A DNA stretch of 64,000 nucleotides from Escherichia coli (GTDB taxonomy: Bacteria > Pseudomonadota > Gammaproteobacteria > Enterobacterales > Enterobacteriaceae): the NCBI RefSeq assembly GCF_024502345.1, contig NZ_JALDNN010000001.1; one strand, written 5' to 3'. Shown one piece after another: positions 5,848 to 47,650 of the stretch. The position numbers were made by a program, and so were the translations under genes. The notes below the pieces were generated by a model. That model saw only the letters and a list, made by a program, of their open reading frames with translations. It did no database searches and had not been told where the DNA came from. Position 1 is the first letter of the stretch; each line of letters opens with the position of its first letter.

Positions 5848-8247
5848 ATGAAGCTAACCGATGCGGATAATGCCGCTGATGGCATTTTTTTCCCCGCCCT
5901 TGAGCAAAATATGATGGGTGCGGTGTTAATTAACGAAAATGATGAAGTGATGTTTTTCAACCCCGCCGCAGAGAAGCTCTGGGGATACAAACGTGAAGAA
6001 GTCATTGGCAATAACATTGATATGCTGATTCCGCGGGATTTGCGTCCTGCGCATCCTGAATACATTCGTCACAACCGTGAAGGCGGTAAAGCGCGCGTCG
6101 AGGGGATGAGTCGGGAGCTGCAGCTGGAGAAAAAAGACGGCAGTAAAATCTGGACCCGTTTTGCGCTATCGAAAGTGAGCGCCGAGGGGAAAGTTTATTA
6201 CCTGGCGCTGGTACGGGATGCCAGCGTAGAAATGGCGCAAAAAGAACAGACCCGACAATTGATTATTGCCGTTGACCATCTCGACCGACCGGTGATTGTC
6301 CTCGATCCGGAACGCCATATTGTGCAGTGCAATCGCGCATTTACCGAAATGTTTGGTTACTGCATTAGCGAAGCCAGCGGTATGCAGCCCGATACACTCC
6401 TGAACATTCCTAAATTCCCTGCCGATAACCGCATTCGTTTACAACAGTTGCTATGGAAAACCGCCCGCGATCAGGACGAATTTCTGCTGCTGACGCGCAC
6501 CGGTGAAAAAATCTGGATTAAAGCCTCTATCAGCCCGGTTTATGACGTGCTCGCGCATCTGCAGAACCTGGTAATGACTTTCTCGGATATCACCGAAGAA
6601 CGGCAGATCCGCCAGCTTGAAGGCAATATTCTCGCCGCCATGTGCAGCAGCCCGCCATTTCATGAAATGGGGGAAATCATTTGTCGTAACATCGAATCTG
6701 TTCTCAACGAATCGCATGTTTCGCTGTTCGCACTGCGCAACGGGATGCCGATACACTGGGCGTCATCTTCCCACGGTGCAGAAGTTCAAAATGCGCAAAG
6801 CTGGTCAGCGACCATTCGTCAGCGTGATGGCGCGCCTGCGGGGATCCTGCAAATTAAAACCTCGTCAGGAGCAGAAACCAGCGCCTTTATCGAACGCGTG
6901 GCAGATATCAGCCAGCATATGGCCGCGCTGGCGCTGGAACAGGAAAAAAGCCGTCAGCATATTGAACAACTCATCCAATTTGATCCGATGACCGGTCTGC
7001 CAAATCGCAATAACCTGCACAATTACCTCGATGACCTTGTCGACAAAGCCGTCTCTCCGGTGGTGTATCTCATCGGTGTTGACCATATTCAGGATGTGAT
7101 TGATAGCCTTGGCTATGCGTGGGCCGATCAGGCATTGCTGGAAGTGGTCAATCGCTTTCGTGAAAAACTCAAACCGGATCAGTATCTCTGTCGTATCGAA
7201 GGTACGCAGTTTGTCCTCGTGAGCCTGGAAAACGACGTCAGTAACATTACCCAAATCGCCGATGAGCTACGGAATGTGGTCAGCAAGCCGATAATGATTG
7301 ACGATAAACCCTTCCCGCTTACCTTGAGTATTGGCATCAGCTACGACGTGGGTAAAAACCGCGATTACCTGCTCTCTACTGCTCACAATGCAATGGATTA
7401 TATTCGCAAGAATGGCGGTAACGGCTGGCAGTTCTTCAGCCCGGCGATGAACGAAATGGTAAAAGAGCGTTTGGTTTTAGGCGCAGCGCTGAAAGAAGCG
7501 ATTAGCAATAACCAACTGAAACTGGTTTACCAGCCGCAAATCTTCGCAGAAACGGGTGAACTGTACGGCATCGAAGCCCTTGCTCGCTGGCACGATCCCC
7601 AGCATGGTCATGTGCCCCCTTCACGGTTTATTCCTCTCGCAGAAGAGATTGGTGAAATCGAAAATATTGGGCGCTGGGTCATCGCGGAAGCTTGCCGTCA
7701 GTTAGCAGAATGGCGTAGCCAGAATATTCATATCCCGGCGCTTTCCGTTAACTTGTCGGCACTGCACTTTCGCAGTAATCAACTGCCTAATCAGGTGTCT
7801 GATGCAATGCAAGCCTGGGGTATTGACGGCCACCAGCTGACGGTGGAAATCACGGAAAGCATGATGATGGAACACGATACCGAAATCTTTAAGCGCATTC
7901 AGATCCTGCGTGATATGGGCGTGGGTTTATCGGTAGATGATTTTGGCACGGGCTTTTCCGGATTATCCCGCTTAGTCAGTCTTCCGGTAACGGAAATCAA
8001 AATTGACAAAAGTTTTGTCGATCGTTGTCTGACGGAAAAACGCATCCTTGCCTTACTTGAAGCCATTACCAGCATTGGGCAAAGCCTCAATTTAACCGTC
8101 GTGGCGGAAGGCGTCGAAACCAAAGAGCAATTTGAGATGCTACGCAAGATCCACTGTCGCGTTATTCAGGGATATTTCTTTTCCCGCCCCCTACCCGCCG
8201 AAGAAATTCCAGGCTGGATGAGCAGCGTGTTACCGCTGAAAATCTGA
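5848..8247 (+). CDS. dosP: Oxygen-sensing c-di-GMP phosphodiesterase (haem-PAS, GGDEF-like, EAL)
   Basis: Start taken at the internal ATG giving MKLTDADNAADGIFFPALEQ (799 aa). The track ORF begins 8 codons earlier, directly after the dosC stop. Confidence 0.9.
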   Translation: MKLTDADNAADGIFFPALEQNMMGAVLINENDEVMFFNPAAEKLWGYKREEVIGNNIDMLIPRDLRPAHPEYIRHNREGGKARVEGMSRELQLEKKDGSKIWTRFALSKVSAEGKVYYLALVRDASVEMAQKEQTRQLIIAVDHLDRPVIVLDPERHIVQCNRAFTEMFGYCISEASGMQPDTLLNIPKFPADNRIRLQQLLWKTARDQDEFLLLTRTGEKIWIKASISPVYDVLAHLQNLVMTFSDITEERQIRQLEGNILAAMCSSPPFHEMGEIICRNIESVLNESHVSLFALRNGMPIHWASSSHGAEVQNAQSWSATIRQRDGAPAGILQIKTSSGAETSAFIERVADISQHMAALALEQEKSRQHIEQLIQFDPMTGLPNRNNLHNYLDDLVDKAVSPVVYLIGVDHIQDVIDSLGYAWADQALLEVVNRFREKLKPDQYLCRIEGTQFVLVSLENDVSNITQIADELRNVVSKPIMIDDKPFPLTLSIGISYDVGKNRDYLLSTAHNAMDYIRKNGGNGWQFFSPAMNEMVKERLVLGAALKEAISNNQLKLVYQPQIFAETGELYGIEALARWHDPQHGHVPPSRFIPLAEEIGEIENIGRWVIAEACRQLAEWRSQNIHIPALSVNLSALHFRSNQLPNQVSDAMQAWGIDGHQLTVEITESMMMEHDTEIFKRIQILRDMGVGLSVDDFGTGFSGLSRLVSLPVTEIKIDKSFVDRCLTEKRILALLEAITSIGQSLNLTVVAEGVETKEQFEMLRKIHCRVIQGYFFSRPLPAEEIPGWMSSVLPLKI

Positions 8248-9099: not shown

Positions 9100-10650
9100 A
9101 TGAAGAGATCGATATCGTTTCGTCCAACATTGCTCGCGCTCGTCCTTGCCACAACTTTCCCGGTTGCGCACGCCGCCGTACCGAAAGATATGCTGGTGAT
9201 TGGTAAGGCCGCCGATCCACAAAACCTCGACCCGGCGGTAACAATAGATAATAACGACTGGACAGTGACCTACCCGTCTTATCAGCGGCTGGTTCAGTAC
9301 AAAACGGACGGTGATAAAGGCTCAACCGACGTTGAAGGCGATCTGGCAAGTAGCTGGAAAGCGTCTGACGAACAAAAAGACTGGACGTTCACCCTGAAGG
9401 ACAATGCTAAATTTGCCGATGGCACACCTGTCACTGCCGAAGCAGTAAAACTCTCTTTTGAGCGGTTACTAAAAATCGGCCAGGGGCCAGCAGAAGCATT
9501 TCCCAAAGATTTAAAGATTGATGCTCCCGACGAACATACGGTGAAGTTTACCCTTAGCCAACCATTCGCACCGTTCCTCTACACGCTGGCGAATGACGGT
9601 GCATCCATTATCAATCCGGCGGTCTTAAAGGAACATGCAGCGGATGATGCTCGCGGCTTCCTCGCGCAAAATACCGCCGGTTCCGGACCATTTATGCTGA
9701 AAAGCTGGCAAAAAGGTCAGCAATTAGTTCTGGTGCCAAATCCGCATTACCCCGGCAATAAACCGAACTTTAAGCGAGTATCGGTAAAAATTATCGGTGA
9801 AAGTGCCTCCCGTCGCCTGCAGCTCTCCCGTGGCGACATTGACATTGCCGATGCGCTGCCGGTGGATCAACTCAACGCCCTGAAGCAGGAAAATAAAGTC
9901 AATGTGGCAGAGTATCCGTCACTGCGCGTCACCTATCTGTATCTGAATAACAGCAAAGCGCCACTTAATCAGGCGGATCTGCGTCGGGCCATTTCCTGGT
10001 CTACGGATTATCAGGGAATGGTTAACGGCATTCTGAGTGGTAACGGAAAACAGATGCGCGGCCCGATTCCGGAAGGCATGTGGGGCTACGATGCGACGGC
10101 AATGCAATACAACCATGACGAAACGAAAGCCAAAGCCGAATGGGATAAAGTGAAGAGCAAACCCACCAGCCTGACGTTTCTCTACTCCGATAACGATCCG
10201 AACTGGGAGCCTATTGCTCTGGCGACACAATCCAGTCTCAACAAGCTGGGCATCAATGTGAAGCTGGAAAAGCTGGCGAACGCCACCATGCGCGACAGAG
10301 TGGGTAAAGGTGATTACGACATTGCGATTGGCAACTGGAGTCCGGATTTTGCCGACCCGTATATGTTTATGAATTACTGGTTTGAGTCAGATAAAAAAGG
10401 TCTGCCGGGTAACCGCTCGTTCTATGAAAACAGTGAGGTCGATAAGTTACTGCGCAATGCGCTTGCGACCACCGACCAGACGCAGCGTACCCGAGACTAC
10501 CAGCAGGCACAGAAAATCGTCATTGATGACGCTGCTTATGTGTACCTGTTCCAGAAAAACTACCAACTGGCGATGAACAAAGAGGTGAAAGGCTTTGTAT
10601 TCAATCCCATGCTGGAACAGGTCTTCAATATCAATACCATGAGTAAATAA
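9100..10650 (+). CDS. ddpA: Periplasmic dipeptide-binding protein of an ABC transporter
   Basis: Start chosen at MKRSISFRPTLLALVLATTFPVAHA (signal peptide). The track ORF extends upstream and overlaps the ddpX 3' end. Confidence 0.88.
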   Translation: MKRSISFRPTLLALVLATTFPVAHAAVPKDMLVIGKAADPQNLDPAVTIDNNDWTVTYPSYQRLVQYKTDGDKGSTDVEGDLASSWKASDEQKDWTFTLKDNAKFADGTPVTAEAVKLSFERLLKIGQGPAEAFPKDLKIDAPDEHTVKFTLSQPFAPFLYTLANDGASIINPAVLKEHAADDARGFLAQNTAGSGPFMLKSWQKGQQLVLVPNPHYPGNKPNFKRVSVKIIGESASRRLQLSRGDIDIADALPVDQLNALKQENKVNVAEYPSLRVTYLYLNNSKAPLNQADLRRAISWSTDYQGMVNGILSGNGKQMRGPIPEGMWGYDATAMQYNHDETKAKAEWDKVKSKPTSLTFLYSDNDPNWEPIALATQSSLNKLGINVKLEKLANATMRDRVGKGDYDIAIGNWSPDFADPYMFMNYWFESDKKGLPGNRSFYENSEVDKLLRNALATTDQTQRTRDYQQAQKIVIDDAAYVYLFQKNYQLAMNKEVKGFVFNPMLEQVFNINTMSK

Positions 10651-34113: not shown

Positions 34114-34808
34114 TGCAGATCCTCAAAGTGATCGGCCTGTTGATGGAGTATCCGGACGAGCTGTTGTGGGAATGCAAGGAGGACGCGCTGGCGTTGATCC
34201 GCCGCGACGCGCCGATGCTTACGGATTTCACCCACAACCTGCTTAACGCGCCGCTGCTGGATAAACAGGCCGAATGGTGCGAAGTGTTTGACCGTGGACG
34301 TACCACATCGCTGCTGCTGTTCGAACATGTTCATGCCGAGTCCCGCGATCGCGGCCAGGCAATGGTGGACCTGCTGGCGGAGTATGAAAAGGTCGGCCTG
34401 CAGCTGGATTGTCGGGAACTGCCCGATTATCTACCGCTGTATCTGGAGTATTTAAGCGTACTGCCTGACGATCAGGCGAAAGAAGGATTGCTCAATGTTG
34501 CGCCGATCCTCGCCCTGCTTGGCGGTCGCTTAAAACAACGCGAGGCACCGTGGTACGCGTTGTTTGATGCTCTGCTGCAACTGGCGGGAAGTACACTTTC
34601 AAGTGACAGTGTCACAAAACAAGTAAACAGCGAAGAGCGCGATGACACCCGCCAGGCGCTTGATGCAGTGTGGGAAGAGGAACAGGTGAAGTTTATTGAA
34701 GATAACGCCACGGCGTGTGACAGCTCGCCGCTTAATCAATATCAGCGACGCTTTAGCCAGGATGTCGCGCCGCAATATGTCGACATCAGTGCGGGAGGTG
34801 GGAAATGA
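34113..34808 (+). CDS. narW: Nitrate reductase 2 assembly chaperone (NarJ-like)
   Basis: 231-aa ORF between the beta and gamma subunits. Confidence 0.9.
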
Positions 34809-35485
34809 TTCAGTATCTGAACGTCTTTTTTTACGATATCTACCCGTACATTTGTGCGACGGTGTTTTTCCTCGGCAGCTGGCTGCGCTACGACTACGGG
34901 CAGTACACCTGGCGCGCCTCCTCAAGTCAAATGCTCGATAAACGCGGGATGGTGATATGGTCGAATCTGTTCCATATCGGCATTTTGGGGATTTTCTTCG
35001 GGCACTTGTTCGGCATGTTAACGCCGCACTGGATGTACGCGTGGTTTTTGCCAGTGGCAGCGAAACAACTCATGGCGATGGTGCTCGGCGGTATTTGCGG
35101 TGTGTTGACGTTGATTGGCGGCGCAGGACTGCTGTGGCGCAGGCTGACAAATCAGCGCGTGCGTGCCACTTCCACTACGCCGGATATCATCATCATGAGC
35201 ATTTTGCTGATCCAGTGTCTGTTGGGGCTAAGTACCATACCGTTTTCAGCACAGTATCCTGATGGTAGCGAAATGATGAAGCTGGTGGGTTGGGCGCAAA
35301 GCATTGTCACTTTCCGTGGTGGATCGTCAGAGATGCTTAACGGTGTAGCGTTCGTTTTCCGCTTGCATCTGGTGTTGGGAATGACCATCTTCCTGCTCTT
35401 CCCGTTCACCCGACTGGTGCATGTGTGGAGCGCGCCGTTTGAGTACTTCACCCGCCGGTATCAGATTGTGCGCTCGCGGCGATAA
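34805..35485 (+). CDS. narV: Respiratory nitrate reductase 2 gamma subunit (cytochrome b)
   Basis: 226-aa polytopic membrane ORF, last gene of narZYWV. Confidence 0.92.
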
Positions 35486-35563
35486 TTTTCACCCTGGCCG
35501 GATAGCCCTTCGCTCTCCGGCCACTTGCAGGCTATGATAGTTCTCCAGCCCAGGAGAACGTTA

Positions 35564-36064
35564 ATGAAACCGCAGGTTTACCACGTCGATGCTTTTACCT
35601 CTCAACCATTTCGCGGCAATTCTGCCGGTGTTGTTTTCCCCGCCGATAATCTTAGCGAAGCGCAAATGCAGCTTATCGCCCGCGAATTAGGTCATTCGGA
35701 AACCACTTTTCTGCTGCACAGCGACGACAGCGATGTGCGCATCCGCTACTTTACGCCAACCGTTGAAGTTCCGATTTGTGGTCACGCGACAGTAGCTGCA
35801 CACTATGTACGTGCGAAGGTGTTAGGTTTAGGAAATTGCACGGTCTGGCAAACATCGCTGGCAGGAAAACATCGCGTGACTATCGAAAAGCACCACGATG
35901 GTTATCGTATTTCGCTGGAACAAGGTACGCCGGGCTTTGAGCCACCGCTGGAAGGTGAAACACGTGCGGCGATTATCAACGCGCTTCATCTCACTGAGGA
36001 CGATATTCTGCCAGGCTTGCCAATTCAGGTGGCAACAACAGGACACTCAAAAGGGCTTTGTTGA
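35564..36064 (+). pseudogene. yddE: PhzF-family isomerase-like gene, 3'-truncated by the IS903 insertion
   Basis: Start MKPQVYHVDAFTSQPFRGNSAGVVF. The reading frame runs into the IS left inverted repeat and ends at a stop inside the IS after about 166 codons; full-length YddE is about 297 aa. Confidence 0.8.
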
Positions 36065-37110
36065 ATAAATCGAACTTTTGCTGAGTTGAAGGATCAGATC
36101 ACGTATCTTCCCGACAACGCAGACCGTTCCGTGGCAAAGCAAAAGTTCAAAATCACCAACTGGCCCACCTACAATAAAGCCCTCATCAACCGTGGCTCCA
36201 TAACTTTCTGGCTGGATGATGAAGCTATTCAGGCCTGGTATGAGTCAGCAACACCTTCTTCACGAGGCAGACCTCAGCGCTATTCTGACCTTGCCATCAC
36301 GACTGTGCTGGTCATTAAACGCGTATTCAGGCTGACCCTGCGCGCTGCGCAGGGCTTTATTGATTCCATTTTTTCTCTGATGAACGTTCCGCTACGCTGC
36401 CCGGATTACAGCTGTGTCAGCAGGCGGGCAAAGTCGGTTAATGTCAGTTTCAAAACGCCCACCCGGGGTGAAATCGCACACCTGGTAATTGATTCCACCG
36501 GGCTGAAGGTCTTCGGTGAAGGCGAGTGGAAAGTCAAAAAGCATGGCCAGGAACGCCGCCGTATCTGGCGTAAGCTGCATCTCGCCGTTGACAGTAAAAC
36601 ACATGAAATCATCTGCGCTGACCTGTCGCTGAACAACGTTACGGACTCAGAGGCCTTCCCCGGGTTAATCCGGCAAACCCACCGGAAAATCAGGTCAGCC
36701 GCCGCCGATGGCGCTTACGATACCCGGCTATGTCACGATGAACTGCGGCGTAAGAAAATCAGCGCGCTTATCCCTCCCCGAAAAGGTGCGGGTTACTGGC
36801 CCGGTGAATATGCAGACCGTAACCGTGCAGTGGCTAATCAGCGAATGACCGGGAGTAATGCGCGGTGGAAATGGACAACAGATTACAACCGTCGCTCGAT
36901 AGCGGAAACGGCGATGTACCGGGTAAAACAGCTGTTCGGGGGTTCACTGACACTGCGTGACTACGATGGTCAGGTTGCAGAGGCTATGGCCCTGGTACGA
37001 GCGCTGAACAAAATGACGAAAGCAGGTATGCCTGAAAGCGTGCGTATTGCCTGAAAACACAACCCGCTACGGGGGAGACTTACCCGAAATCTGATTTATT
37101 CAACAAAGCC
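36056..37110 (+). mobile_element. IS903-group insertion sequence (IS5 family)
   Basis: Terminal inverted repeats GGCTTTGTTGAATAAATC at 36056..36073 and its reverse complement at 37093..37110; about 1.05 kb with a single transposase ORF. No matching 9-bp direct repeat flanks the element (actcaaaag on the left, tatgcaagg on the right). Confidence 0.9.
36086..37054 (+). CDS. IS903-family transposase
   Basis: ORF containing ...FKITNWPTYNKALINRGSITFWLDDEAIQAWY...WKVKKHGQERRRIWRKLHLAVDS...DGAYDTRLCHDELRRKKISALIPPRKGAGYWP..., matching my recollection of the IS903/IS102 transposase. The true start codon may be internal to the track ORF. Confidence 0.85.
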   Translation: MKDQITYLPDNADRSVAKQKFKITNWPTYNKALINRGSITFWLDDEAIQAWYESATPSSRGRPQRYSDLAITTVLVIKRVFRLTLRAAQGFIDSIFSLMNVPLRCPDYSCVSRRAKSVNVSFKTPTRGEIAHLVIDSTGLKVFGEGEWKVKKHGQERRRIWRKLHLAVDSKTHEIICADLSLNNVTDSEAFPGLIRQTHRKIRSAAADGAYDTRLCHDELRRKKISALIPPRKGAGYWPGEYADRNRAVANQRMTGSNARWKWTTDYNRRSIAETAMYRVKQLFGGSLTLRDYDGQVAEAMALVRALNKMTKAGMPESVRIA

Positions 37111-37483
37111 TATGCAAGGAGTATTTGATCATGTATAAGCAATAAAAACAGCTTCAGGAAATAAGGAATATCGCAATTTTTAAACATAAAATGCGAATCG
37201 TTCAATACAAAAAAGCAGCGTTGCGTAATCTTTCCCTGATTAAATACGCTACTGCCCTACCCTGATGACATGATCTGCACTGCACTATCATATAGACATG
37301 TTTCTCAACATGCGAAAAGATGTTTTATTTTCGGATTATATTAAATTGATATTTCATATAAAAAATGAAATTACATCAATCATATAAATAATTGTACCAA
37401 CTTTAATTACTATTCATAGCAAACAAATGGATATCCAGTTAACTACGCCAGTGATTCATTAACATTAACCTCCGGCATTATTG

Positions 37484-38101
37484 TTAAATAATGACATTCC
37501 TTTTTAATACTTCTTGTAATTTCGGTAACTGACATACAGCATCAGCAATCGCACTGATATTCGTGGCATTATCCTGAAACCATTCATGCCCAGGCCCCCA
37601 TGTACGCATAGTGCAAAGATAACAGTCCACCAGCGTTAGTTGCTCACCAAACGCATAAGGTTCAGCAGTGAGCTGCGAATTCAGCCAGATATAAAGCGAT
37701 TTTCGATATTCAATAACATTCTTCTTTAACTGTTCAGGTGCGTCAGGAGCCCAACGCTCAGGGTAATCGGCGAAAGTGAATGTTGGATAGATATTAGCAA
37801 CCAGCCAGACCAATAGCCGTTGAAACTGCTGGCGTTCGGTGCGCCCAACCGGTGGCGCAAGGTCCGGGCGACGATCGAGAACCATCAATGCAATCGCCGC
37901 TGTCTCCGTCATAATCTCGTCATTTTCCAATGCCAGTGTCGGAACCTGACACAACGGGTTCAGGGTTTTCAATAACTCGCGTGAAGCTCCCTCGTGGTCA
38001 AAACCACTGACATCAACGAACTGATAAGGAATATCAGCCAGTGTTAGCATCAGCTCACTGATTGTAGAGCCCCATCCGGGTACGCCATACACCTTAATCA
38101 T
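37484..38101 (-). CDS. yncG: Glutathione S-transferase homolog
   Basis: 205-aa ORF MIKVYGVPGWGSTISELMLTLADIPYQFVDV... with a GST thioredoxin-like N-terminal domain; next to ansP. Confidence 0.8.
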   Translation of the reverse strand: MIKVYGVPGWGSTISELMLTLADIPYQFVDVSGFDHEGASRELLKTLNPLCQVPTLALENDEIMTETAAIALMVLDRRPDLAPPVGRTERQQFQRLLVWLVANIYPTFTFADYPERWAPDAPEQLKKNVIEYRKSLYIWLNSQLTAEPYAFGEQLTLVDCYLCTMRTWGPGHEWFQDNATNISAIADAVCQLPKLQEVLKRNVII

Positions 38102-47308: not shown

Positions 47309-47650
47309 AGATCTTCTCATACTCTCCAGGTTTACAACATTATCCTTAATATTTACTTCTTTTTGCTGGCATCTACATTGAAATGAGTAGAAAACATCCC
47401 CCTACTGTCGTCTATACAAACAGCTTACTGATTCAAAGGGAATCTTGTTTTCACATTTTTCTATCATGAATACTTTATACGCGCGGGAGTCTATAAATGC
47501 TTTATACTTTCAAGGAATAACGCAAATATAAAAAGATGGCGTAAAGTATATGCATGGCAGGATGTTTGCAACCTCCTTCATGACGCTGCCCCATTGAAAT
47601 TGCAAACCCCGCCCTGGTTATCTTGCCCATTTATCATGCAAAACAGATAA

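Follow-up and report, generated by a model that had tools for sequence, protein, structure and literature searches.

A literature search for yddE together with PhzF found nothing relevant. Full-length YddE, a member of the PhzF family, has 297 residues (PDB 1qy9), and in E. coli K-12 its gene lies downstream of narZYWV. The insertion sequence met in this work belongs to the IS903 group, and IS903 insertion makes 9-bp duplications of the target. Adjacent deletions occur commonly with IS903, where they require both ends of the element and follow the replicative pathway; together with inter-IS recombination, they are the usual causes of missing target-site duplications (TSDs) (PMC11708052). Those described for IS903, IS1 and IS150 in the Lenski long-term lines leave an intact IS at the junction and no TSD, and remove a contiguous block of DNA (PMC11708052). 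The locus presented here resembles them in these three respects. It differs from them in one: evolution experiments have documented the insertion that preceded the deletion (PMC11708052), whereas for this locus we found none in complete E. coli genomes or in JGI metagenome contigs.

We analysed a 64-kb stretch of the E. coli chromosome, called the window below. In it yddE occupies the same place as in K-12 and its first 163 residues are nearly those of K-12 YddE (159 of 163 identical to 1qy9, 1qya and 1sdj, the differences in the window being A48T, I94V, N111H and D113G), but after residue 163 only a foreign GLC tail follows before the stop. Taking all the evidence together, we are highly confident that this yddE is a pseudogene produced by an IS903B-associated deletion in which about 8.4 kb were lost, adjacent deletion being the most likely route.

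The truncated yddE reading frame

The gene order of the window, fdn ... narU-narZYWV-yddE ... yncG-ansP-yncE-pqqU, is that of an E. coli chromosome segment. Immediately upstream of yddE and on the same strand lies an intact narV (34805–35485, + strand, an ORF of 226 aa), which codes for the gamma subunit of nitrate reductase Z; at the corresponding place, MSB1_9D, TC24 and 21EVA have a gene annotated narI/narV. Two further features of the segment may be mentioned. An Rfam SECIS_3 element (23381–23439, − strand, 84 bits) has a position that fits fdnG, the formate dehydrogenase-N gene, and is expected here. The alignments of many complete E. coli genomes to the window break off near position 47356, a sign of another junction that varies between strains, close to ortT/yncL and to a gene for a CatB-like acetyltransferase.

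The truncated frame, yddE′, extends on the + strand from an ATG at 35564–35566 to a TGA at 36062–36064 and ends in ...VATTGHSKGLC. Its 166 codons specify 163 YddE residues followed by G-L-C. The original prediction took this frame for a PhzF-family yddE, and the profile search agrees: Pfam PF02567 (PhzC-PhzF) was matched with E=2.4e-54 and 185 bits, for a cut-off of 27, and PDB 1qy9 with E=5.9e-107. Residues 1–163 align without a gap to the 297-aa YddE of MSB1_9D and TC24 and to the PDB entries 1qy9, 1sdj and 1qya. The frame had also been described as intact for about 165 codons before running into an IS. It does run intact and then into the IS, but the native part really comprises 163 codons and the initial base of the 164th, nucleotides 1–490 of yddE (35564–36053, + strand).

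Alignment of the DNA places the change from yddE to the IS exactly between 36053 and 36054, where nucleotide 490 of yddE is followed by nucleotide 1 of the IS. The native ...ACTCAAAAG followed by TGATGATCC is replaced in the window by ...ACTCAAAAG followed by GGCTTTGTTGAATAAATCG; in the longer context, the native ...ACACTCAAAAG followed by TGATGATCCC... gives way after base 36053 to GGCTTTGTTGAATAAATCG... The junction, which had been expected to place the left breakpoint to within a few nucleotides, places it to the base. The frame also ends as anticipated, a few codons into the IS and with an IS-encoded tail: G-L-C is followed by a TGA that lies inside the terminal repeat of IS903B.

The loss amounts to 134 of the 297 residues (45%, residues 164–297). 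The profile match places yddE′ in the family, whereas the complete two-domain fold of about 260–310 residues is absent, the match covering only positions 1–156 of the 281 of PF02567. The solved YddE/PhzF homologues are 262–310 aa long and all align across the half that is missing from yddE′; none of them ends near residue 165–180. This, with the Pfam coverage, rules out a naturally short isoform of YddE. The N-terminal domain, including the SET motif, is kept. The conserved C-terminal RMFSPA-G-VED-TG block (residues 211–226 of YddE, 197–212 of PhzF) lies 3′ of the breakpoint and is absent; in the alignment of the solved homologues, the region of this RMFSPA..EDPVTG block is the most conserved of the family, and it holds what we take to be the active-site residues D208 and S213 of PhzF. 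On the strength of its sequence, yddE′ should be unable to form the two-domain cleft of the PhzF/DapF-like fold and, given the missing domain, its product is almost certainly inactive. The earlier view that the C-terminal half of the fold is lost is therefore confirmed by an alignment in which only residues 1–163 of 297 find a partner, and the non-functional product that had been proposed is supported by the absence of that domain. We suggest that the 166-codon ORF be labelled a yddE pseudogene and not a PhzF-family protein in annotation.

Two observations concern the retained part. Among the differences from K-12 YddE, A48T (codon 48, 35705–35707) adjoins the conserved HSET motif; it is also found in the intact yddE of the closest relatives and thus predates the truncation. 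Short PhzF proteins named 'partial' are present in the same 90% cluster as the yddE′ product.

The IS903B element and its surroundings

The element that interrupts yddE is a complete IS903B (IS5 family, IS903 group) of 1057 bp, located at 36054–37110 on the + strand. It shares 99.9% identity over 1057 bp with the annotated copy of MSB1_9D, which RefSeq labels 'IS5-like element IS903B family transposase', and 99.7% with the copy of C3728. Its left inverted repeat, GGCTTTGTTGAATAAATC (36054–36071, + strand), provides codons L165 and C166 and the TGA stop of yddE′; its right inverted repeat (37093–37110, − strand) is a perfect inverted copy, with 0 mismatches. The window contains just two exact copies of these 18 nt, in inverted orientation and delimiting 1057 bp, where chance would give 0.01, so that they do not represent a chance pattern. 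The junction strings observed in the window are AACAGGACACTCAAAAGGGCTTTGTTGAATAAATCG and TTATTCAACAAAGCCTATGCAAGGAGTATTTG. The single transposase ORF is intact (36086–37054, + strand, 322 aa when started, as in RefSeq, at the TTG) and reads away from the end that abuts yddE, so that this end is the left end of the IS, as had been proposed. Its product carries the Pfam domains DDE_Tnp_1_5 (3.4e-40) and DDE_Tnp_1 (6.6e-33) and is identical at 322 of 322 positions to the translated transposase ORF of the MSB1_9D IS903B, annotated WP_000654812.1. The published IS903B transposase, which we take to be 307 aa long, would fit the GTG at 36131.

In its size of about 1057 bp, its perfect 18-bp inverted repeats and its single intact DDE transposase gene, the element is as the known IS903B; it is complete and, to judge from its sequence, presumably active. 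It differs from a simple IS903 insertion in lacking the 9-bp duplication. Rather than speaking against its identity as IS903B, this difference points to a secondary rearrangement.

The yddE′ and transposase ORFs lie on the same strand and in the same frame, and in the interval 36062–36086 a single TGA is the only stop that separates them. This codon, at positions 9–11 of the IS in the left inverted repeat, blocks in-frame translation from yddE′ into the transposase. A promoter and terminator consensus scan, uninformative as to expression, gave counts that were not above shuffled-sequence expectation, and no convincing terminator emerged from it in the stretch from narV through yddE′ to the IS. 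Together with the shared frame and strand, this makes read-through transcription into the IS plausible. Going further, one could imagine that read-through from narZYWV/yddE, or a rare read-through of the TGA giving a YddE(1–163)-transposase fusion, couples IS903B activity to upstream expression, or that the N-terminal YddE fragment persists with a dominant-negative or new role; we consider any such function most improbable.

Other strains also carry IS903-group elements between yddE and yncG. In MSB1_9D (NZ_LR890349.1; L001, 6001–7057), yncH and a remnant of ISEc1 flank a copy with 99.9% identity; copies with 93% identity split pptA in TC24 (L002, 8008–9064) and adjoin vgrG in M15 (L003, 6001–7057). 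From these positions, the yddE-yncG island looks like a recurrent landing or rearrangement site for the IS903 group. The MSB1_9D copy is the same element, in the same orientation, likewise placed between yncG and the yddE side, and it too abuts a truncated gene, the ISEc1 transposase. However, neither of its junctions is that of the window, the strain keeps yddE, nhoA, yddH and pptA intact, and its right flank belongs to a yncH-type allele; on these differences, the MSB1_9D insertion is an independent event.

The right flank and the deleted DNA

The right breakpoint lies between 37110 and 37111, and the two 9-mers that flank the IS, ACTCAAAAG on the left and TATGCAAGG on the right, are identical at 4 of 9 positions; the window was tested for a 9-bp target duplication around the IS and has none. 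Beyond the IS comes intergenic DNA (37111–37483), which in intact relatives is found between yncG and a PAAR/vgrG T6SS islet, and then an intact yncG (glutathione S-transferase family, 37484–38101, − strand, 205 aa), the first gene beyond the deletion. This right flank has contiguous 98–99% matches in 695 complete genomes, just past the end of yncG. In A30 and 042, the stretch starts 166 bp beyond the PAAR gene start and is followed by the PAAR-VgrG T6SS islet, and in 042 then by yddH, nhoA and yddE.

The first 128 bp to the right of the IS (37111–37238) are also 86–91% similar to DNA that adjoins ISAs1/H-repeat elements in other Rhs/vgrG loci, at 10418–10546 of the TC24 locus L002 and at 6001–6129 of the locus L004; this is a dispersed, island-associated repeat. 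A reading of the right flank as ISAs1/ydcC-adjacent DNA, suggested by these 86–91% matches, was rejected: they reflect a repeat upstream of several Rhs/vgrG loci, and the contiguous match of the flank is the yncG-PAAR intergenic region.

The exact 205-aa YncG of the window also occurs in relatives that keep the island, and it was through this protein that we found four draft or metagenome contigs (L010, L012, L013 and L014) that match the right flank with 100% identity across 3,890 bp. In two of them, L013 and L014, the left flank is also 99.7–99.8% identical to that of the window, and the DNA between both breakpoints measures 8,443 bp in L013 and 8,442 bp in L014. This 8.4-kb segment codes for DUF2169, Tox-PAAR-like and C39-like peptidase proteins, small ORFs, pptA, yddH, nhoA and the 297-aa yddE, of which the window has lost the 3′ 404 nt. 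When the L014 segment was searched for in the 64-kb window, no match was found beyond two repeats of 32–36 bp; nhoA, yddH and pptA are absent from the window, which holds a single IS903 copy. An inversion within the 64 kb or a local relocation was discarded on these two grounds, the missing DNA being nowhere else in the window and the IS903 copy being single. As yddE does not continue beyond the right end of the IS, and as 8.4 kb separate the two flanks in the relatives, we are dealing with an IS-associated deletion and not with a simple insertion. The rearrangement, judged against the closest intact relatives, consists in the loss of about 8.4 kb, and IS903B marks the centre of the deletion.

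Route, reality and meaning of the deletion

Breakpoints that coincide with the IS termini (36053/36054 and 37110/37111), an intact IS and the lack of a TSD are the hallmarks of an adjacent deletion, and all of them are observed here. In such an event, an IS903B resident at one of the two sites would have attacked a nearby target on the same molecule by intramolecular replicative transposition; the intervening DNA, about 8.4 kb, would have left as a circle, and one IS903B would have stayed in the chromosome, with its old flank on one side, a new one on the other and no TSD. Translation of yddE′ would since then end at the TGA in the left repeat, giving YddE 1–163 plus GLC. While the junctions, the integrity of the IS, the missing TSD and the content of the lost segment are read directly from the DNA, this order of events and the transposition mechanism are what we infer from them.

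The final product would be the same if two directly repeated copies of IS903B had recombined. In this scheme, one copy would have been inserted at codon 164 of yddE and another, in the same orientation, in the yncG-PAAR intergenic region, and RecA-dependent homologous recombination between them would have removed the 8.4 kb and left a hybrid IS. One intact IS with non-matching 9-bp flanks, as observed, is what this process yields, and since the yddE-yncG island harbours IS903-group elements in several other strains, two insertions are not far-fetched; inter-IS recombination is furthermore a recognised cause of missing TSDs (PMC11708052). However, it requires two independent insertions in the same orientation, 8.4 kb apart, and then a third event, whereas adjacent deletion, which the literature calls common for IS903, starts from a single earlier insertion. 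Nor was either single insertion found in the 5,426 complete E. coli genomes or in JGI metagenome contigs. The hypothetical ancestral junctions would read TCAACAAAGCCACTCAAAAGTGATGA and TCCTTAATTATGCAAGGGGCTTTGTTGAAT. In the JGI contigs, exact-pattern scans for the right inverted repeat with ACTCAAAAG and yddE-distal DNA, and for PAAR-side DNA with TATGCAAGG and the left inverted repeat, gave 0 matches; an IS903B at only one of the sites with its 9-bp duplication was seen in no genome. Because it needs fewer events, adjacent deletion is somewhat favoured; recombination between two copies stays a serious if less probable contender, and only a small remainder falls to capture of the IS at a break.

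This last process, proposed for an element of the IS5/IS903 subgroup in E. coli C (PMC11708052), would consist here of a single step, a spontaneous deletion or double-strand break between yddE and yncG that was repaired with capture of IS903B, in the absence of staggered cuts by the transposase. The missing TSD and the location of the IS exactly at the centre of the deletion match the reported pattern (PMC11708052), and nothing in the present data separates it from adjacent deletion. The mechanism is itself hypothetical, however, and neither end of the IS lacks a single base, as expected of ends processed by the transposase, so that we regard it as improbable.

IS elements being classic sites of mis-assembly, one may also ask whether the contig was mis-joined through the repeated IS903B, in which case the two flanks would not be truly adjacent. 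Neither junction was found among the 5,426 complete RefSeq E. coli genomes, where a shared junction would give 70–78% query coverage and the best seen was 54%. Against this, the left junction is repeated exactly in an independent ENA metagenome contig (ERZ27268145 k141_71467, L008), which extends 122 bp into the IS; the left junction is thus not an artefact of the assembly of the window, although what this contig supports is the truncation and not the linkage to the right flank. Four public contigs of 20–50 kb encode exactly this 166-aa protein, with both NCBI and ENA among the sources. A private 1-bp deletion upstream of yddE, shared by the window and L008, also fits a real lineage. We hold a mis-join to be very unlikely. 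Least likely of all is an insertion into an intact or naturally short yddE with no deletion, which we can practically dismiss: the left junction alone would look identical, but yncG-proximal intergenic DNA and not yddE follows the IS, the 9-bp duplication is lacking, nhoA, yddH and pptA are absent from the window, and the solved homologues, at 262–310 aa, span the missing half.

The IS903B-associated deletion looks recent. Over the retained 490 nt, the yddE of the window is identical to the intact copies in L013 and L014, and no decay subsequent to the truncation was detected relative to these genes; it is this lack of change that makes the event appear young. The private deletion removed an A at 35551 (between 35550 and 35552), 13 nt upstream of the yddE ATG and immediately before the AGGAG Shine-Dalgarno sequence. 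Only the window and L008 have this deletion, the A being kept in 5 of 5 aligned relatives with an intact yddE, and it may be either a lineage marker or an early sign of relaxed constraint. Over 6.6 kb, the window and L008 are identical save for 10 transitions and 1 indel within about 150 bp (35338–35486) at the 3′ end of narV; at the indel, just past the narV stop, L008 has the variant of 21EVA and of the contig L011. Such clustering points to a short tract of recombination or to a chimera made by strain mixing when the metagenome was assembled.

In conclusion, a known gene, a known IS and a textbook process are combined here, and the case is, on the sequence comparisons above, one of routine gene loss and not a new biological system; its importance is modest and it raises no new mechanistic question. 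Exact to the nucleotide, the junction is a clean marker by which the lineage of one E. coli clone can be recognised. A single event removed nhoA (arylamine N-acetyltransferase), yddH, pptA, in all likelihood the function of yddE, and a small islet of T6SS effectors, and it adds a further example of elements of the IS903 group reshaping the hypervariable yddE-yncG (Rhs/vgrG) island.
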